The notes under the pieces: generated by a model
What the model was told of the DNA's origin: nothing
The model's input: the letters and a program-made list of their open reading frames with translations, nothing else
The model's database searches: none
Virus record (IMG/VR): IMGVR_UViG_2645728091_000021
From: a virus
Lineage: Duplodnaviria; Heunggongvirae; Uroviricota; Caudoviricetes
Length of the DNA stretch: 9,487 nucleotides
Direction: 5' to 3' (one strand)
Shown here: positions 1,307 to 9,487 of the stretch, one piece after another
How positions within the stretch are numbered: the stretch's first letter is position 1
Layout: each line of letters begins with the position of its first letter
Position numbers and translations under genes: made by a program

Positions 1307-3766
1307 TTAAAAATCAACCGGATTCGGGATCAGTTTTTGCCAGATTGCTGAAACGTATTTTGCCTGGTGACGGGCGTCATCCAGTGCATTGTGGCGAACG
1401 CCTTCGAATGGAATAACGGTTCTAGCATCAAAGTCGATTGTTTTTCCCAGCTCAACGATTGTGCGTACATCGCGATCGTTGTGGTAGCGCCACGGGCAGG
1501 GGATTCCCTGTCGTTCGTATGAACGGCGTAAAATTACGTTGTCGAAACTGGTTCCGTTGCCCCAGACCTGAACAAAAAACTCACCGGAGTTTTCGTCGAT
1601 AAATTCCCGTAATTGCAACAGTGCATCATCTAACGGGATTTCATCAGCCAGAATGGCAGACTGCGCTTCGCGCGATTGCTTCAGCCACCACTTAACGGTG
1701 TCCCTGTCAATGACACCGCCAGCAGTATCCAGATCGATGGTCTTACTGAATTCTGGCCCAATATCTCCGGTTTGCGGATCGAAAAATATTGCACCTATTG
1801 AGATAACTGCAGCATCAGGATTTTTTCCCATGGTTTCCAGGTCGATCATCATATGAGTCCACATTCTGTTGCTGGTGGATATGTATTTATGATGACTGTT
1901 CACCGTAATTAGGGGATTTGCCGTCTCGCCAGTTTCATCACTGCTATTGCCATGCTGAGCGTCACCAGCGCTCTCCTTACGAGAATGCGCAGTGCTTTCC
2001 ATTTTCTCCGAATCTTTTTCAGCCAGATTTTCTTCATCGAATGTTTCCTGATATGTTGTGTTACCCATAACAGGCCCGCAGTCCGGACATTTTCCGCCGC
2101 CAGCCCGGCCGCAAGTATTGCAGCTTTTTTCAGTCTCCTGTTGTGCTGTTGGCTCTGACTGTTGCACTTCTGGCCCGTTTTGTTGCGCATCCGGGCTGTT
2201 TTGTTCCGCTTTCTGGTCGTTCTGTTCCATTTCTTGCTGATTCTGGTACACAGAATCGCGAGTCTGGATCCCCTCAACCCACTTCGGATCATTCGGGTCG
2301 CTAATTCCTTCAACAAATTCACCACGTGATGCAGCAAGCACTTTGTCTGCATCAGGCAGATTTTCTGTCTCCATTTTTTTATTTGTTTCGACCGTGTTAA
2401 CTTTTACCGGCTCTGGTTGTTCAGAGTTTTGTGCGGCATTGGTATTTTGCGGTAAGCCTGTGTATGTGCCATTTTTTCGGGCGACGTATTCTTCTTTGGT
2501 GATTTCAGTAGCCCCGGCAGCCAGAGCCTTATTCAGACCAGACAGTTTGTTTGCGCGACCGTATTTTTCGCTGTCCTTATCGGTAAAGAGGAAGTAGAAC
2601 GGTCCTTCACGCTCTACAGATGGTTCAGCTTCCAGTGCGCTTTCATTTTTTTGGGTGCCAGATACTTCTGTTTCCACTGCATCAGTTTGTGTTGCTGACG
2701 ACCGGAGAACATCAGCAGGACTCTGATCCGTTTCTTCATCTTCAAACACGCCTTTTGTCGTCAGGTATTCAGTGATGTATTTGTTCAGCGCCACGGGATC
2801 TTTGTGAATGTTGAGCGGACGTTCGCGAACAAGACCAAAAATCGTCTGACGGCTGTAGCGAAGCGCATCAGGCTGTTTGCGCATTGATGCGGAGATACGC
2901 TTCCAGTCTTCTCGGTCGTTGTCGATAACTTCATTTTTTGCCCAGCGATGGATACTGCCGTCAATGTTTCCGGCATCAATATCACCAGGCCAGAGGGCGC
3001 AGGCCAGTTCGCCATCCAGTGTTTTCCATGTCTGCTTGTATTCGCGATGAATGACAGCAGTTACGGAGTCAGTTTTTCCTGCAGAGTTTTCAGTGCCTTG
3101 CCGGTTGACTCTGGCGCGGGCAAGATCGACGACGGAATTATATGCTCCACCTTCTTTGCGCTCCTTTTCCATGCGTTTTTTACGTTCGAGAAAATACGCC
3201 TGAACGTCGGGCCATTTGGCTGTTGGTTTTAAATCACGTCTGGCATCGTTGATGTACTCAGTCTGACGCTCAGGATATATGGCGTTAATTTCTTTAGTCC
3301 TGATAATTGCTTCAGTGAGGTGTCCATCAAAAGTCGTCATCTCGTCATCGCCGAGAAGCCCGCTTGCATTGATGACCATATCCACGGTGATGTTTTCATG
3401 TGTACCGAACCTGACAAGGACAGCAGCCCGCTTGTCTTCAGATAACTGATTAAAGTTAACAGTTTCTGTATCCGGTTCAGGGTCGACCGGAACAAAGGAA
3501 GCCGACTCCTCATTCCAGCGGTTTTCCTGCATATATTCGGAATCCCAGGAATCGAGAGCAGGGCGGGCCATGCCGGGTTTATCCTCGCAGACAAGAAATT
3601 TATAAGCACAGTCCTGAGCTTCCGGGTATTGTTCCAGAAATAACCAGCTAAATTTGGCTCTTGCCCGGCGTTCGTCGCCTGCTTCAATGGCAGTGGCCAC
3701 AGGTTTAGCGCCTTCTGCTGTTGCCTGTTCGTCCGGAATGGCGGCGCAAATAAAGACTTTACTCAT
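1307..3766 (-). CDS. RecE-like (exodeoxyribonuclease VIII family) mosaic protein with C-terminal DEDDh (DnaQ-like) 3'-5' exonuclease domain (819 aa)
   Basis: Single long minus-strand ORF with a GAGG SD upstream of ATG 3766. The C-terminal ~181 aa (about 1310-1852) carry the three DEDDh motifs in order: MIDLET (Exo I), WGNGTSFD (Exo II), HNALDDARH (Exo III, H-x4-D). The centre has a Q/E-rich low-complexity linker and a C-x2-C-x7-C-x2-C zinc ribbon (CNTCGRAGGGKCPDCG, about 2075-2122), preceded by ...LAASRGEFVEGISDPNDPKWV..., which I recall from the central region of Rac RecE. Sits between the dicB cassette and xis-int, where lambdoid recombination genes normally lie. Confidence 0.8.
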   Translation of the reverse strand: MSKVFICAAIPDEQATAEGAKPVATAIEAGDERRARAKFSWLFLEQYPEAQDCAYKFLVCEDKPGMARPALDSWDSEYMQENRWNEESASFVPVDPEPDTETVNFNQLSEDKRAAVLVRFGTHENITVDMVINASGLLGDDEMTTFDGHLTEAIIRTKEINAIYPERQTEYINDARRDLKPTAKWPDVQAYFLERKKRMEKERKEGGAYNSVVDLARARVNRQGTENSAGKTDSVTAVIHREYKQTWKTLDGELACALWPGDIDAGNIDGSIHRWAKNEVIDNDREDWKRISASMRKQPDALRYSRQTIFGLVRERPLNIHKDPVALNKYITEYLTTKGVFEDEETDQSPADVLRSSATQTDAVETEVSGTQKNESALEAEPSVEREGPFYFLFTDKDSEKYGRANKLSGLNKALAAGATEITKEEYVARKNGTYTGLPQNTNAAQNSEQPEPVKVNTVETNKKMETENLPDADKVLAASRGEFVEGISDPNDPKWVEGIQTRDSVYQNQQEMEQNDQKAEQNSPDAQQNGPEVQQSEPTAQQETEKSCNTCGRAGGGKCPDCGPVMGNTTYQETFDEENLAEKDSEKMESTAHSRKESAGDAQHGNSSDETGETANPLITVNSHHKYISTSNRMWTHMMIDLETMGKNPDAAVISIGAIFFDPQTGDIGPEFSKTIDLDTAGGVIDRDTVKWWLKQSREAQSAILADEIPLDDALLQLREFIDENSGEFFVQVWGNGTSFDNVILRRSYERQGIPCPWRYHNDRDVRTIVELGKTIDFDARTVIPFEGVRHNALDDARHQAKYVSAIWQKLIPNPVDF

Positions 3767-5381: not shown

Positions 5382-5436
5382 AATTTAGAATAACCTAACA
5401 AATGTGGCAAGTATTTTTTGTTAGATTGGTCTAACA
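5382..5436 (-). promoter_or_regulatory. Leftward early promoter (PdicB-like) with two DicA-type operator palindromes
   Basis: Minus-strand -35 TTGCCA (plus 5405-5410), 17-bp spacer, -10 TAAATT (plus 5382-5387). A degenerate operator TTAG-N6-CTAACA (5383-5400) sits in the spacer; a perfect TGTTAG-N6-CTAACA palindrome (5419-5436) sits just upstream of the -35. Confidence 0.5.
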
Positions 5437-5472
5437 AAAAGAGTGAGGGAATCTAAGTATCTGAAAGGAGTG

Positions 5473-5880
5473 TTATTTTATTGATTTGTTTTTACGTGCT
5501 TTAAGCATTTCTTCGAAGAGTTTATTGAAATTTTCTACTCTTGCGCGCATTTCAGACAGTAAGGCTTCCTGCTCGGAGGAGGGAAGAGCATCGAATAATT
5601 CGATCAATTCTTTGTGGCTGGGAGTTAACTCGGTTTCCACATGAAGTTCTTGTGCTGGCACTGGTGCCTTGTCTTCGTCACCAAACATTAGCCATGTAGG
5701 CGAGCACTTCAGCGCATCAGCTAAAGCAAATAACCGCTTCCCGACCGGTTGGGTTTCGTCTCTTTCCCATTGTGAAATTGTGACGTGAGCTACCCCAGCG
5801 AGGCGTGCAGCTTCTCGTTGTGTTAGGCGTAATTCTTTTCGTCGTGCCAGAACTCGCTGGCCTAGGGTTCTTGTATCCAT
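5473..5880 (-). CDS. dicA: DicA-like HTH (XRE family) prophage repressor (135 aa)
   Basis: Product carries an N-terminal HTH (LTQREAARLAGVAHVTISQWERDETQP). The C-terminal part (...LFALADALKCSPTWLMFGDEDK...LPSSEQEALLSEMRARVENFNKLFEEMLKAR...) closely matches my recollection of E. coli DicA, which is also 135 aa. Divergent from the cro-like gene. No SD; a TAGAAT -10 lies 9 nt upstream of the ATG, suggesting a near-leaderless mRNA. Confidence 0.9.
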   Translation of the reverse strand: MDTRTLGQRVLARRKELRLTQREAARLAGVAHVTISQWERDETQPVGKRLFALADALKCSPTWLMFGDEDKAPVPAQELHVETELTPSHKELIELFDALPSSEQEALLSEMRARVENFNKLFEEMLKARKNKSIK

Positions 5881-5957
5881 AGTTAGGTAATTCTAATTTT
5901 TCTTGACTTAGGTATCCCGCGCACATTACTGTTAGGAATATCTAACAAGAGGGGGCT
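5881..5957. promoter_or_regulatory. Divergent immunity promoters (PdicA-like leftward, PdicC-like rightward) with operator palindrome
   Basis: Perfect palindrome TGTTAG-gaatat-CTAACA at 5930-5947 and a weaker AGTTAG-N6-CTAATT at 5881-5898. Rightward -35 TTGACT at 5903-5908 with a weak -10 near 5926-5932. Leftward -10 TAGAAT (plus 5890-5895) just upstream of the dicA-like ATG. Confidence 0.5.
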
Positions 5958-5960
5958 TTG

Positions 5961-6188
5961 ATGCTTAAAGTTGACGCAATTACTTTTTTTGGCAGCAAAA
6001 CAAAACTTGCCAATGCCGCAGGAGTGAAACTGGCAAGTGTTGCTGCATGGGGGGAACTGGTTCCTGAAGGTCGCGCGATGCGCCTGCAAGAGGCATCCGG
6101 CGGGGAACTTCAGTACGACCCCAAAGTTTATGACGAATATCGTAAGGCAAAGCGGGCGGGGCGGTTGAACAATGAAAATCACCCCTGA
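5961..6188 (+). CDS. dicC: DicC-like Cro-type regulator (75 aa)
   Basis: Product MLKVDAITFFGSKTKLANAAGVKLASVAAWGELVPEGRAMRLQEASGGELQYDPKVYDEYRKAKRAGRLNNENHP matches my recollection of DicC. GAGGGGG SD 5 nt upstream of ATG 5961; the TTG at 5958 in the ORF track is less likely. Divergent from the dicA-like gene. Confidence 0.85.
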   Translation: MLKVDAITFFGSKTKLANAAGVKLASVAAWGELVPEGRAMRLQEASGGELQYDPKVYDEYRKAKRAGRLNNENHP

Positions 6189-6693
6189 ACAGGTTTGTGA
6201 GGCTCTGGATGCCTGGGTATGCCGACCAGGAATGACACAGGAGCAGGCGACGATATTAATCACGGAAGCATTCTGGGCTCTGAAAGAACGCCCGAACATC
6301 GATGTTCAACGCGTCACGTTTAATGATGGCGAGGTTGATCAACGGGCGTTGGGCGTTAACCGGGTGAAGATATTCGAACGCTGGAAAGCTATCGACACCA
6401 GGGATAAGCGGGAAAAATTCACGGCGCTGATTCCGGCAATTATGGAGGCTATCCGGATCAGCGATTTCAGGTTGTATTGTGAAATTACTGACGGAAAAAG
6501 CATTACGTACATGATCGCCGGGTTAAACAAAGAATATGGTGATGTGGTGGAGTCCGGGCTGCTTTTTGCGGATCCATCTGTTGTGGAACGTGAGACTGAC
6601 GAGCTTATAGAAAAAGCTATTGCTTTCAAGCATGCGTATCGTCAGCAATACCAACAAAAAGCTGGATGGAATTATGAGCCTTCTTTTTGCTGA
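6172..6693 (+). CDS. YdaT-like / CII-position regulatory protein (173 aa)
   Basis: ORF overlaps the dicC-like 3' end by 17 nt and the replication initiator start by 20 nt, i.e. the CII position of a lambdoid right operon. The segment ...KIFERWKAIDTRDKREKFTALIPAIMEAI... resembles what I recall of Rac YdaT; the family call is tentative. Confidence 0.6.
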   Translation: MKITPEQVCEALDAWVCRPGMTQEQATILITEAFWALKERPNIDVQRVTFNDGEVDQRALGVNRVKIFERWKAIDTRDKREKFTALIPAIMEAIRISDFRLYCEITDGKSITYMIAGLNKEYGDVVESGLLFADPSVVERETDELIEKAIAFKHAYRQQYQQKAGWNYEPSFC

Positions 6694-7639
6694 ACGCCCA
6701 CTGGTTATAAACACACAGCTTGCGATGAAGATTGGCTTAAATGAAGCCATTGTGTTGCAGCAGTTGCATTACTGGTTGAGAGATACCAGTTCCGGTATGG
6801 AATGTGACGGGGTTCGCTGGATTTATAACACAACAGAACAATGGCTGGAACAGTTCCCGTTCTGGTCAGAGTCAACGTTAAAACGCGCATTTGCAAGTCT
6901 GAAAACGCTGGGGCTTTTGCGTTGCGAAAAGCTCAACAAATCAAAGCGTGATATGACTAATTTTTACACGATTAATTACGAGAGTGAGCTTTTAGATGGT
7001 GGCAAAGTGAGCGAATCCATCAGGTCAAAATGCGCCGCTCCATCGGGTCAAAATGACACGATGGAAGAGGTCAAAATGGCACGATCCATTGGTTCAAAAC
7101 GACCCAATGTCATCGGGTCAAAATGGCCTGATGATCTTACAGAGAATACAACAGAGATTACTACAGAGAATAAAAACACTTCTCGTCCGGAAGCTTCGCA
7201 ACCGGACCCGCAGACGGCTGAACAGGATTTTTTAACCCGACACCCTGACGCGGTTGTGTTCAGTGCGAAAAAACGCCAGTGGGGAAGTCAGGAAGATTTG
7301 GCGTGCGCACAGTGGATCTGGGGACGAATCGTGAGTCTTTACGAGCAGGCTGCCAGCGATGATGGCGAGATCACGCGACCGAAAGAACCAAACTGGACCG
7401 CATGGGCCAATGACGTGCGCACAATGCGGATGCTGGATGGCAGAAGCCACAGACAAATTTGCGAAATGTTTGGTCGGGTACAGCGAGATCCATTCTGGGT
7501 AAAAAACATCATGAGCCCGTCAAAGCTTCGCGAAAAATGGGACGACCTGGTCATCCGCCTGGGGCGTTCACCTGTACAGTGTTGTGTGAATCATATTTCT
7601 GAACCGGATACCGAAATTCCGCCTGGTTTCAGGGGATAA
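6674..7639 (+). CDS. Replication initiator (O-like origin-binding N-terminal domain, DnaT-like C-terminal domain), 321 aa from ATG 6674
   Basis: N-terminal domain MSLLFAERPLVINTQLAMKIGLNEAIVLQQLHYWL...LKRAFASLKTLGLLRCEKLN looks winged-helix-like. An iteron array lies inside the gene (see repeat feature), as for lambda O. The C-terminus ...SEPDTEIPPGFRG matches my recollection of the E. coli DnaT C-terminal tail (...EPDSQIPPGFRG). Alternative starts at 6620 (TTG) and 6632 (ATG) are possible. Confidence 0.8.
   Translation: MSLLFAERPLVINTQLAMKIGLNEAIVLQQLHYWLRDTSSGMECDGVRWIYNTTEQWLEQFPFWSESTLKRAFASLKTLGLLRCEKLNKSKRDMTNFYTINYESELLDGGKVSESIRSKCAAPSGQNDTMEEVKMARSIGSKRPNVIGSKWPDDLTENTTEITTENKNTSRPEASQPDPQTAEQDFLTRHPDAVVFSAKKRQWGSQEDLACAQWIWGRIVSLYEQAASDDGEITRPKEPNWTAWANDVRTMRMLDGRSHRQICEMFGRVQRDPFWVKNIMSPSKLREKWDDLVIRLGRSPVQCCVNHISEPDTEIPPGFRG
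7023..7125. repeat. Replication origin iterons: five copies of GGTCAAAATG-type core at ~23-bp spacing, followed by an A-rich ACAGAGA triple repeat (7139-7172)
   Basis: Cores at 7023-7032, 7046-7055, 7069-7078, 7091-7100 (variant GGTTCAAAAC) and 7116-7125, each within a longer repeated unit (cat-cGGGTCAAAATG-...). Immediately downstream, ACAGAGA recurs at 7139, 7151 and 7163 in an A-rich tract, resembling the AT-rich unwinding region next to the lambda ori iterons. Confidence 0.75.
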
Positions 7640-7679
7640 GTGGTGATTTTAGGGCATAAAGTAATGTTCAGGAGGACTT

Positions 7680-8087
7680 ATGGCAAAAGTATTTACACAG
7701 GAAGAGCGGGAAAAAATTAAAGGACAGGTGGTGGAACTCGTGCGCCAGAGCGGTCGTGAGACGTTACGGCAACTGGAAGCTAAAACAGGTGCGACAAGAT
7801 ATCTGATGAGCGTTCTTGCCAGAGAGCTGGTTGCCAGTGGTGATGTATATCACTCTGGCTATGGGGTGTTCCCGTCAGAACGGGCTCGTAAGGACTGGCA
7901 AAACGCCCGCAAAAAACTCTCGAGGGCAAAGGTGAAGAAACCTGTTGTGGTTGATCCGGGCCTTATCTGGACATTACCCGACGGAGAAATACGTCGCTAC
8001 GACAGGCGTATGAACATAATCTGTCGCGAGTGCCGGAAGAGCGAAGTTATGCAGCGTGTATTGGCGTTCTATCAGGGATATGCCTAG
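7680..8087 (+). CDS. Hypothetical protein (135 aa), backbone-like GC, possibly DNA-binding
   Basis: Strong AGGAGG SD 5 nt upstream of ATG 7680. Basic C-terminal half (KKLSRAKVKKP, RRYDRRMNIICRECRK). Sits where a helicase loader (P/DnaC-like) would normally follow the initiator, but is far too small for an AAA+ loader. No motif recognised. Confidence 0.65.
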   Translation: MAKVFTQEEREKIKGQVVELVRQSGRETLRQLEAKTGATRYLMSVLARELVASGDVYHSGYGVFPSERARKDWQNARKKLSRAKVKKPVVVDPGLIWTLPDGEIRRYDRRMNIICRECRKSEVMQRVLAFYQGYA

Positions 8088-8133
8088 AATTGTCACAGGT
8101 AATGAAATTAAAGAGTATTGGTTCGGATATGAA

Positions 8134-8163
8134 TTGACATTTTCGCGGCACAGAGCTAAAAAT
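8134..8163 (+). promoter_or_regulatory. Candidate sigma70 promoter in the AT-rich spacer upstream of the SIR2-like gene
   Basis: -35 TTGACA (8134-8139), 17/18-bp spacer, -10 TAAAAAT (8157-8163). A transcript from here would carry a ~290-nt leader before ATG 8456. Confidence 0.4.
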
Positions 8164-8455
8164 AGCCTACTTGTTGGTTTTGTGTGAAAAGCAGACATTT
8201 TGAGGCTCAGGATTTGTTATCAAATAAGACCAATACTTATCTATATTAATACACATTAAATACTGTGCAATACATTATTGCATTTTATTAGATAAGCGAT
8301 ATTTAGGGAAAAGAAAAGTCATAGAAAACAGGCCGCTATTTGTTGTTGGATTTTATAGGCTATATCTAGATTATCTTGCCACTGCGGTCTCTGTTTACCT
8401 AACAGCTTGGGCTTCTTTGCATGCAAGTTTGTAATAACAAGTGTAATCAAACGGA

Positions 8456-9487
8456 ATGTCTATTAATCCTAAACTTAAGCGTATCGCGCGACGCTATCCA
8501 GCGTTATTCCAATATGAGTCCCCCTATATGGCAAGAAAATTAATAATATTCGGCAACGGTCTCGGTATGGCTTTAGATCCTGCTCACTTCTCCTTAGACA
8601 GAGCGTTGGAAGAAATTTGGCATCGCCCCAATTTTTTAAAAGATATCCACAAGCAACTTATCGAGCGTTGTCTTCAGCGGCAAGGTCCACCAGAAGGAGA
8701 ACATGAGTTGGATACCCTTCACCAGGCTGTCACATATTGTAAAGCTCTTGCTCAAATTGGAGAGGGGAACGTGCATTGGCTTACTGAAGATGGACTAAAC
8801 TTCCCCAAAATTACCGCCACTTATATTCACAAAGTTGCAACCAGGTTGCATAATTACGATAAAGGTTTGCCACAAAGATTCGAAAATGCGCTTGTGGAGT
8901 TTGTAAAGAACACACACTCACATATCGCGACATTAAACTATGACAAATTATTATACAATTCATTCATAGATAATGATATATTCAACGGGTATGATGGGGT
9001 TTTAGTTGATGGGATGCTAAGCCACGGATTTTCCTCTGCAGCGCTCGAACGGAAATACAATCGTAGGTTTGGTTATTATTTGCACTTGCATGGTTCACCA
9101 CTATTTATTAATCAGCATGAAAATGTTTTAAAACTTTCACGCTCACAACTTACTCTTGACATAGATGAACCTAGTGAGCATATAGTGTTAACTCATATAA
9201 AAAGAAAACCGTCAGTTATAGCAGCATCTAATGTTCTTTCTACGTACTGGGATTATTTGCAGTTTGCATTATTTGAATCAGAAGAAATAATATTGTTTGG
9301 TTACTCTGGTCTCGATATTCACCTTAACCTGCTTATTCGACCTTACCTAACCTCTAAGCCTTTAAGAGTAATTGAGTGGAGCGGTGCTGGTGAACAAAAC
9401 GCTCGTGAGATATATTGGAAAAACCAGTTGAGACGGGAAGTTACTGTAATTAGGTTGGATAACATCACTGATTTTATTGATTGGTAG
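8456..9487 (+). CDS. SIR2-like (SIR2_2-type) domain protein, candidate NAD+-consuming anti-phage effector (343 aa)
   Basis: Complete ORF; its stop TAG is the last three bases of the window. Ordered motifs: glycine-rich loop IIFGNGLG (res 31-37), TLNYD (159-163, putative catalytic Asn161), HLHGS (210-214, putative catalytic His212), FGYSGLD (281-287). These parallel the ThsA SIR2 motifs I recall (FAGAGLS, TTNYD, KMHGD, FVGFSFTD). The gene and its 368-bp upstream spacer are visibly AT-rich compared with the phage backbone. SD is weak; M25 (8528) is an alternative start. Confidence 0.75.
   Translation: MSINPKLKRIARRYPALFQYESPYMARKLIIFGNGLGMALDPAHFSLDRALEEIWHRPNFLKDIHKQLIERCLQRQGPPEGEHELDTLHQAVTYCKALAQIGEGNVHWLTEDGLNFPKITATYIHKVATRLHNYDKGLPQRFENALVEFVKNTHSHIATLNYDKLLYNSFIDNDIFNGYDGVLVDGMLSHGFSSAALERKYNRRFGYYLHLHGSPLFINQHENVLKLSRSQLTLDIDEPSEHIVLTHIKRKPSVIAASNVLSTYWDYLQFALFESEEIILFGYSGLDIHLNLLIRPYLTSKPLRVIEWSGAGEQNAREIYWKNQLRREVTVIRLDNITDFIDW

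Follow-up and report, generated by a model that had tools for sequence, protein, structure and literature searches.

How does a phage that carries a replication initiator and an origin, and no gene for a helicase loader, bring the helicase of its host to that origin? The question is raised by a 9487-nucleotide (nt) stretch of Caudoviricetes DNA (IMG/VR virus record IMGVR_UViG_2645728091_000021), hereafter called the window. Its replication initiator gene (6674..7639, plus strand; ATG at 6674, stop codon at 7637-7639) is an open reading frame (ORF) coding for 321 amino acids (aa) with a lambda-O-type architecture, and the product matches PHROG 391 ('replication initiation O-like') with E = 7.5e-95. 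RefSeq has the same ORF, labelled 'hypothetical protein' (WP_000054523.1), in an E. coli prophage of 99.8% identity, and searches of Pfam and NCBIfam with the initiator returned no match (in Pfam, none even at E up to 10). The initial annotation of the window had proposed that the phage recruits the host primosome or DnaC-DnaB through a C-terminal tail mimicking that of the primosomal protein DnaT. Comparison of gene neighbourhoods shows that, among the loci sampled, such tails track DnaC-type loaders and are absent from P-type modules.

The DnaT-type tail and the type of helicase loader

The initiator ends in CVNHISEPDTEIPPGFRG (aa 304-321, encoded at 7583..7636 on the plus strand). This C-terminus is identical at 13 out of 17 positions to residues 163-179 of E. 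coli DnaT (VNTVSEPDSQIPPGFRG, taken from the K-12 genome; pairwise E = 1e-7), which bears out the likeness noticed initially, and in both proteins the tail sits at the very C-terminus. It is the sole match of the initiator to the DnaT chains of the PDB (2ru8, 6aep and 9zbt_D). An alignment with DnaT over the C-terminal ~90 aa had also been envisaged, but the likeness is confined to about the last 18-20 residues, aa 179-296 being a lambda/434 O domain (see below).

The proteins encoded just upstream of phage DnaC-like genes were collected in two samples. In the first, the tail was present at the end of all proteins (78/78). In the second, broader one, with DnaC-like proteins sharing about 47-54% identity with E. 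coli DnaC and with upstream proteins drawn from at least four families, 78 out of 79 end in the tail and the exception has the tail plus two extra residues; the two samples together thus give 156 tails for 157 proteins. By contrast, none of the 66 proteins encoded upstream of P-like loaders has a DnaT-type tail, and all 66 possess the lambda-type tail LTNTDWIYGVDL. The census was also made starting from the tail, on 90 tail-bearing loci whose downstream sequence extends over at least 2.5 kb, a DnaC homologue being counted if it was at least 200 aa long: 45 loci have a DnaC homologue, 45 have none and P is present in none of the 90. The DnaC-like gene of the listed loci starts 7 nt past the end of the tail ORF (6 intervening nt in locus L173). 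The idea that the tail marks loader-less modules was rejected, a DnaC-like gene being present at half of the tail-bearing loci; nor, with this gene directly downstream in 45 of the 90, is the tail a special adaptation of loader-less phages, a point on which the initial interpretation needs correcting.

A tail swap within one domain family is provided by P0133. The C-terminal domain of this protein is 60% identical to that of the window initiator, yet its tail is HWNSAEAWENTL and the next gene codes for a P-like loader (E = 3e-45 to 434 P). Judging from these two sequences, it is the tail, and not the folded domain, that differs when the partner changes. At locus L449 (3393-5164), an O-type initiator with the tail HWNSAEAWENTL precedes a divergent P-like loader that shares 37% identity with 434 P. 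Further W-rich acidic tails exist in the family (WNNREEWEEEFI and EWNTEEGWRGML), and they too may mark P-type partners.

The host chromosome shows a similar arrangement. In E. coli K-12, dnaT is followed by dnaC within 2 nt (L005 4239-5518), and the Rac prophage of the same strain has the order ydaU (ending in ...PDSAIPPGFRG; VNTVSLPDSAIPPGFRG), ydaV (DnaC-like) and ydaW (DUF977), so that the same tail-loader layout occurs twice in K-12. Two IMG/VR contigs (L367 and L368) encode DnaC proteins 100% and 93% identical to E. coli DnaC, with upstream proteins that end like DnaT; these are probably host dnaT-dnaC DNA in the viral collection.

The tail as a portable motif

IMG/VR viral contigs were scanned at the DNA level for the exact motif IPPGFRG followed by a stop codon; variants such as IPAGFRG entered the analysis through protein-based scans. 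The DNA scan yielded 119 ORFs ending in the tail, in at least six upstream contexts: an O-type domain as in the window initiator, Phg_2220_C (PF09524), a true DnaT domain (PF17948) with or without a DUF1376 N-terminus, the YdaU/DUF1376 family, and two contexts without any Pfam match. By this measure the tail appears as a portable short linear motif, present on at least five unrelated initiator families. The profile of 105 unique tails reads R-[DC]-[VI]-N-x-[IV]-S-x-P-D-x-x-[IV]-P-x-G-F-R-G at the C-terminus. Positions upstream of IPPGFRG, which lie outside the search pattern, are 66-85% conserved among these 105 tails; the profile is hydrophobic and conserved, and its core combines a single conserved basic residue with several acidic or polar ones that are conserved as well. 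An exhaustive HMMER search with the initiator's C-terminal domain showed, reciprocally, that homologous domains carry different short tails, namely the DnaT type (..IPxGFRG), the lambda type (..NTDWxxGxxL), an HWNSxEAWENTL type and others. The named tail-bearing relatives all belong to Enterobacterales; E. coli, a member of this order, has both DnaC and DnaT itself.

Several individual proteins illustrate how the tail is combined. In the representative P0171 (347 aa) the motif is present twice, internally (...DYSIPKGFRG) and at the end (...TEIPHGFRG), which fits a short linear motif open to duplication. Two unrelated families found among loci L086-L205, classes A and B (e.g. L093 and L086), have identical last 17-20 residues (QRCVNHISEPDTEIPPGFRG) and are unrelated just upstream of them (...KLREKWDELVIRLGRSPV versus ...FGPDRNFENPWLLPVSGTNN); a recombination joint located just before the tail is suggested by these sequences. 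The protein encoded at 8648-9568 of L204 has an N-terminal domain and an iteron-encoded linker nearly as in the window initiator but a Phg_2220_C (PF09524) C-terminal domain, and it still ends in ...YSAIPPGFRG, a makeup indicating that domains are shuffled around a constant tail.

Phage proteins with a full DnaT domain (PF17948) and the tail were also observed (L133, L089 and similar loci; 63% and 50% identical to residues 84-179 of DnaT). For the type combining DUF1376 and the DnaT domain, a DnaC-like gene comes next in two of the three usable loci; for the other DnaT-domain type, none does in six out of six. The host dnaT-dnaC operon looks like a relative of a phage initiator-loader module. 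As for the mimicry of DnaT proposed initially, the resemblance stands and its direction may be the reverse, since phages encode proteins made of a DnaT domain plus tail beside DnaC-like genes.

Existing annotations already reflect the tail: some O-type initiators of Klebsiella (P0283, P0284) are called 'primosomal protein I' at NCBI, and the initiator of phage Kati (L003 1232-2173) is annotated 'primosomal protein'. These Klebsiella and Kati entries represent presumed origin-binding initiators, not DnaT.

Architecture of the initiator

The N-terminal part (~aa 11-105; 6704..6988, plus strand) is a winged-helix domain according to an AlphaFold2 model, Foldseek and PHROG. In the full-length model, aa 14-100 form helices and strands arranged as a winged helix with a predicted local distance difference test score (pLDDT) of 70-91. 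The best Foldseek matches of this domain are winged-helix regulators and the N-terminal domains of plasmid Rep/initiator proteins (4pql, 5kbj, 4pt7; E 0.003-0.04, probability about 1), and PHROG 6493, 428 and 11233 match the same part of the protein. It is presumably the iteron-binding domain. Phage_rep_O (PF04492) is absent from it in the Pfam search, in which the 434 O control matches at 5.6e-36; this winged helix is of another lineage than Phage_rep_O. Over the first 129 residues (window 6674-7060), identity to the N-terminal ends of 'DnaD-like helicase loader' proteins from Staphylococcus and Bacillus phages is ~45%, which is unusually high given how distant the hosts are.

A linker (aa 110-178) which is disordered in the model (pLDDT <50) leads to a folded C-terminal domain (aa 179-296; 7208..7561, plus strand) homologous to that of lambda and 434 O. 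The match to 434 O has a BLASTP E-value of 7e-27, and tblastn also finds the O proteins of lambda, 434 and phi80. In the full-length model this domain is all-helical and the end of the protein is unstructured; in a separate model of aa 182-321 the helical domain reaches a pLDDT of 91 and the last ~25 residues are of low confidence, so that the tail has no secondary structure and a low pLDDT in both models.

Relatedness to DnaT beyond the tail was looked for by several methods. Pfam gave no match of the initiator to the DNA-binding three-helix domain of DnaT (PF17948); hhalign comparison of a 73-sequence profile of the initiator domain with DnaT was not significant once the tail was removed (E = 0.19); structural comparison gave no match of the folded C-terminal domain to DnaT; and neither the N-terminal oligomerisation domain of DnaT nor its acidic PriB-binding linker aligns with the initiator outside the tail. 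On these comparisons the protein is best classified as a lambda-O-type initiator bearing a DnaT-type tail, not as a member of the DnaT family. The analysis shows four parts: a winged helix, a disordered linker, a lambda-O-type C-terminal domain and an unstructured, DnaT-like tail of ~20 residues.

The origin inside the gene

The initial annotation had described five iterons spaced by ~23 bp and a triple ACAGAGA repeat within the initiator gene, and both were found again. The iterons (CATCGGGTCAAAATGnCnCGATG; 7018..7133, plus strand), presumed to be the initiator binding sites of the origin, are 23 bp long and lie at 7018-7040, 7041-7063, 7064-7086, 7087-7109 and 7111-7133, that is with a spacing of 23/23/23/24 nt. 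Four of the five contain the exact 10-mer GGTCAAAATG, the fourth copy having GTTCAAAACG. Four exact occurrences of GGTCAAAATG compare with 0.07 expected, and none of 200 shuffled sequences reached four; the exact 10-mer search is the valid test here, a search allowing two mismatches being uninformative (11 sites found for 12.8 expected). Each iteron unit has inverted ends (CATCG...CGATG).

The iterons are followed by an A-rich stretch of low GC content (7134..7180, plus strand; 32-35% GC, AT skew up to 0.63), in which ACAGAGA occurs at 7139, 7151 and 7163 with a spacing of exactly 12 bp. By analogy with the lambda origin, this stretch is presumed to be the DNA-unwinding element. Both elements lie in the DNA coding for the linker (aa 110-178). 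In an alignment of four relatives, one of which is just 94% identical overall to the window gene, columns 101-186 (window 7105-7190), comprising the fifth iteron and the entire A-rich stretch, are identical in all four save column 178. That single substitution (window 7182) falls just outside the A-rich stretch, so that 7134-7180 is identical throughout. Such near-invariance from the fifth iteron to the A-rich stretch suggests a constraint acting at the DNA level. The iterons are also conserved in relatives.

The position of the iterons within the gene is similar to that in the 434 O gene (nt 350-444 here, nt 349-417 for the ATCCCTCAA iterons of 434), in agreement with the lambda-O-like, origin-inside-gene layout proposed at the outset.

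The loader-less module and its prophage context

Neither E. coli DnaC, nor a phage DnaC-like protein, nor 434 P gave a tblastn match in the window, in the prophage around it (context L001, 42.8 kb) or in Escherichia phage PhiR42_1 (complete genome, 48.7 kb), and the annotations of the prophage context and of PhiR42_1 contain no loader or helicase gene. The absence of a P/DnaC-like loader and of a DnaB-like helicase gene noted initially thus extends from the window to the whole prophage. A dnaC remnant was looked for in the window and not found. A related module does possess the gene. The L173 initiator is 94% (nucleotide) and 96% (amino acid) identical to that of the window; the two DNA sequences cease to be homologous precisely at the stop codon and, 6 nt further on, an intact gene for a 248-aa DnaC-like protein begins. 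In the window and in at least eight other loci with the same initiator, a DUF977 gene is directly next and no DnaC-like gene is present.

This next gene (7680..8087, plus strand; Pfam DUF977, E = 1.7e-29; PHROG 142) encodes a 135-aa protein which PHROG describes as a 'Ren-like exclusion protein' and which has no match to an ATPase family, in line with the absence of AAA+ motifs noted initially. DUF977 is as frequent in DnaC-bearing as in DnaC-less tail loci (38/45 in each group), and it was rejected as a loader on account of this equal frequency. The larger downstream genes of DnaC-less loci, read by eye, are cargo (SIR2-like, KAP-type and AAA ATPases, methyltransferases, a transposase, DUF968-like), with no helicase seen among them.

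A second loader-less lineage, with the tail DYSQIPAGFRG, consists of phage Kati and 66 out of 80 related viral contigs. The loader-less form thus recurs in unrelated initiator families (A, B and Kati-like). It is a common type of module and not an obviously decayed one.

The window belongs to a lambdoid E. coli prophage: over bases 5400-8200 its identity to prophages of several complete genomes is 99.8%, and at least 80% of this stretch occurs in 524 of the 5426 complete E. coli genomes. The prophage is of a lambdoid, Qin-like type with DicA/DicC immunity. In strain FDAARGOS_1059, where it adjoins yccA, the gene order is integrase, a DUF4224 gene (in the slot of the excisionase of PhiR42_1), an ExoVIII-like exonuclease, dicB, ydfC, ydfB, a DicA-like repressor, DicC/Cro, a YdaT/cII-like gene and the initiator gene, followed by DUF977, SIR2, hokD, rem, DUF968, RusA, a DUF1133 family gene and the lysis and head genes. 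PhiR42_1, deposited as a complete genome, has the same early region, and its initiator gene is named 'DNA replication protein O'.

In the window, the immunity and early-regulation genes span 5473..6693 on mixed strands, in an order like that of lambda cI-cro-cII-O: the DicA-like repressor (5473-5880, minus strand), DicC/Cro (5958-6188, plus strand) and the YdaT/cII-like gene (6172-6693, plus strand), which overlaps the start of the initiator gene. A search of Rfam with the window gave no match. On its left side, at 1307-3766 (minus strand), the window encodes an 819-aa exonuclease with an ExoVIII-like middle part and a C-terminal Rv2179c-like 3'-5' exoribonuclease domain.

The slot following DUF977 is occupied in the window by a SIR2_2-domain gene (8456-9487). 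The matching slot holds varied cargo in L096, L112, L137, L171, L179, L199 and L200; in relatives, by eye, this includes a KAP-type NTPase, an AAA ATPase, a SIR2-like protein, DNA methyltransferases, a transporter and a transposase. The slot looks like a variable hot spot for defence or moron genes.

Possible roles of the tail

We favour a model in which the tail serves as a docking element for host DnaB-DnaC at the phage origin, and we would put its probability at roughly 55%. The N-terminal domain would bind the iterons and the A-rich stretch would open; the tail would then dock a DnaC-type loader carrying DnaB. Phages with a DnaC-like protein of their own would use that copy, and the phage studied here, having lost its loader or never had one, would use host DnaB-DnaC directly. 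By the same reasoning, the tail of DnaT, being of the identical type, would be a strong candidate for recruiting DnaB-DnaC to the preprimosome of PriA, PriB and DnaT; in the 2026 literature the way in which DnaT recruits this complex is given as unknown (PMC13377028, PMC13220808).

A wider proposal, which we regard as possible rather than probable, is that the tail of DnaT and of the phage initiators is a dedicated docking peptide for DnaC-type loaders and the missing link of the preprimosome, that host dnaT-dnaC is a domesticated phage module, that lambdoid phages without a loader, such as the one studied here, replicate by offering this peptide of roughly 19 residues to the DnaB-DnaC of their host, and that O-type tails are interchangeable adaptors setting loader specificity, with the DnaT type for DnaC and the W type for P.

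Several points weigh against the docking of DnaB-DnaC by the tail. The partner of the tail is read from gene neighbourhood alone. The sampled loci are not phylogenetically independent, many being close relatives, and the DNA coding for the tail adjoins dnaC, so that linkage within one recombination module could inflate the association. The tail core is invariant though phage DnaC-like proteins diverge to about 50%, which fits a conserved host partner (DnaB or PriA) equally well. The cryo-electron microscopy (cryo-EM) study of the preprimosome favours the N-terminal domain of DnaT, not its tail, as the recruiter and shows the C-terminal domain of DnaT docked on PriA (PMC13377028). DnaT lacking residues 154-179 has a lower affinity and cooperativity for single-stranded DNA (ssDNA; PMC4132743), so the tail may serve DNA binding or oligomerisation. 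Finally, the viability of PhiR42_1 is taken from its database record alone.

The most serious alternative, though an unlikely one in our estimation, is that the tail docks the initiator on PriA (or PriB), near the site of the DnaT C-terminal domain; PriA, PriB and DnaT would assemble at the opened origin and load DnaB from DnaB-DnaC, making replication dependent on PriA and DnaT. On PriA, the HD2/CTD is where the C-terminal domain of DnaT docks, by way of a hydrophobic, conserved interface (PMC13377028), and the tail shares these two properties; neither that paper nor the others consulted states that DnaT residues 160-179 contact PriA. The D-x-x-I-P-x-G-F part of the tail resembles, by eye, the PriA-binding C-terminal tip of SSB (DDDIPF, a peptide quoted in PMC4129139). 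The invariant core would suit such a conserved host partner, and a link with DnaC-type loaders would be expected here too, DnaB-DnaC being what the PriA pathway uses.

What a PriA contact leaves unexplained is the presence of the tail on every initiator beside a phage-encoded DnaC-like loader. Each of these initiators has to contact the loader encoded beside it, and no element other than the tail is common to the unrelated families. Moreover, the C-terminal end of lambda O specifies P, and W-type tails accompany P-like loaders; by analogy, the DnaT-type tail would specify a loader as well. Recruitment of a host system through the tail, as first proposed, has strong comparative evidence (156/157 against 0/66) for a link to DnaC-DnaB.

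It is improbable that the tail is a general aid to ssDNA binding or to the initiator's self-association on the origin once opened, a role proposed for residues 154-179 of DnaT, with DnaB-DnaC recruited by the O-type C-terminal domain or by host DnaA. So clean a split by loader type would be unexpected for such an aid, as would the swap to a W-type tail in the 60%-identical domain that has a P-like partner, and a core with one conserved basic and several acidic or polar residues is unusual for a DNA-binding tail.

Slightly less probable still is a defective remnant, in which the loader gene was deleted, the prophage cannot replicate alone and the tail has no current function. The DnaC-like gene of L173, beside the same initiator, would suit this view, as would the cryptic nature of many Qin/Rac-like E. 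coli prophages (Rac is annotated as cryptic). However, initiator ORF, iterons and A-rich stretch are all intact, and they are conserved; loader-less loci equal loader-bearing ones in number (45 versus 45) and recur in unrelated families, including Kati and its relatives (66/80 loci); and the module is present in 524 complete E. coli genomes and in PhiR42_1, a complete phage with a full lambda-like structural set.

Lastly, that the 135-aa DUF977 protein (or the product of another small downstream gene) is a new kind of loader replacing DnaC or P is very improbable: its gene directly follows the initiator gene, 41 nt downstream, and the function of the family is not known, but DUF977 is equally common with and without DnaC, follows the DnaC-like gene where there is one, as ren follows P in lambda and ydaW (DUF977) follows ydaV (DnaC-like) in K-12 Rac, and is grouped by PHROG with Ren-like exclusion proteins.

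The window initiator itself is a common prophage gene, and the interest lies in the pattern to which it led. This pattern offers one short, easily mutated peptide as a candidate for the hand-over by DnaT of DnaB-DnaC to the restarted fork, together with natural controls, i.e. tail swaps within one domain family and the presence or absence of dnaC beside the same initiator. It suggests that what sets loader specificity in lambdoid phages is the C-terminal tail, as a swappable part, and not the folded O domain. If docking of DnaB-DnaC by the tail is true, it explains a common class of E. coli prophages without a loader gene and predicts that loader-less phages are sensitive to host dnaC alleles. 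If the tail binds PriA instead, these phages would be the first known case of lambdoid phages that use the restart primosome to initiate replication.

Comparison with known systems

Initiators of the lambda O type with the origin inside their gene are textbook knowledge, and lambda and 434 O with ori-lambda are among the closest parallels to the window. They share with it an origin located inside the initiator gene, iterons at the same position of the gene with an A/T-rich stretch after them, a homologous C-terminal domain (E = 7e-27) and the order repressor, cro, cII-like gene, initiator and ren-like gene. The window differs in having an initiator without the Phage_rep_O N-terminal domain, no P gene, and a tail of the DnaT type (IPPGFRG) where the lambda type has NTDWIYGVDL.

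The YdaU-YdaV-YdaW module of Rac resembles it in the tail of YdaU (VNTVSLPDSAIPPGFRG), in the DUF977 gene (ydaW) downstream and in an immunity region of the YdaS/YdaT type. The N-terminal domain of YdaU, however, is DUF1376 and its C-terminal region is unrelated, and the DnaC-like loader YdaV is kept between initiator and DUF977, where the window has none.

With E. coli DnaT the likeness consists of the last 17 residues (13/17) and of gene order, the L173-type initiator being followed by a DnaC homologue within 6 nt as dnaT is by dnaC. The window initiator lacks PF17948 and any likeness to the N-terminal domain or the acidic linker of DnaT; and DnaT is recruited to forks by PriA-PriB (PMC13377028), whereas the window protein is presumed to be a sequence-specific origin binder.

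A precedent for the tail itself is the 'DnaT C-terminal motif' (HHpred to 2ru8_A) reported by Brezellec et al. (2017) in DopC, a domesticated O-like helix-turn-helix (HTH) protein; O-P, DopC-DopE and DnaT-DnaC were drawn side by side in that work (PMC5509034). DopC shares with the window initiator an O-like HTH protein and the DnaT C-terminal motif but is without iterons, pairs with a P-like protein and is reported to have no O-type C-terminal domain (PMC5509034), whereas the window protein keeps this domain and adds only the tail. A link of the tail to loader type was not reported there (PMC5509034), and the DciA paper does not mention dnaT (PMC5109545). Our literature search found no report of the tail as a portable motif tied to DnaC-type loaders or as an explanation of loader-less modules, no paper with 'PPGFRG' and none on YdaU and YdaV in replication. 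What is new here is the association of the tail with DnaC-type loaders; the lambda-O-type layout with the origin in the gene and the DnaT motif in DopC were known before.

The classification of phage replication modules by Weigel and Seitz (2006) is said to include an 'initiator-solo' type, in which the initiator carries the origin and no loader or helicase gene is adjacent, reportedly with no explanation of how the host helicase is recruited. The window matches that type in having a lambdoid initiator with its origin and no adjacent loader, and differs from it in that its tail offers a candidate mechanism for the recruitment.

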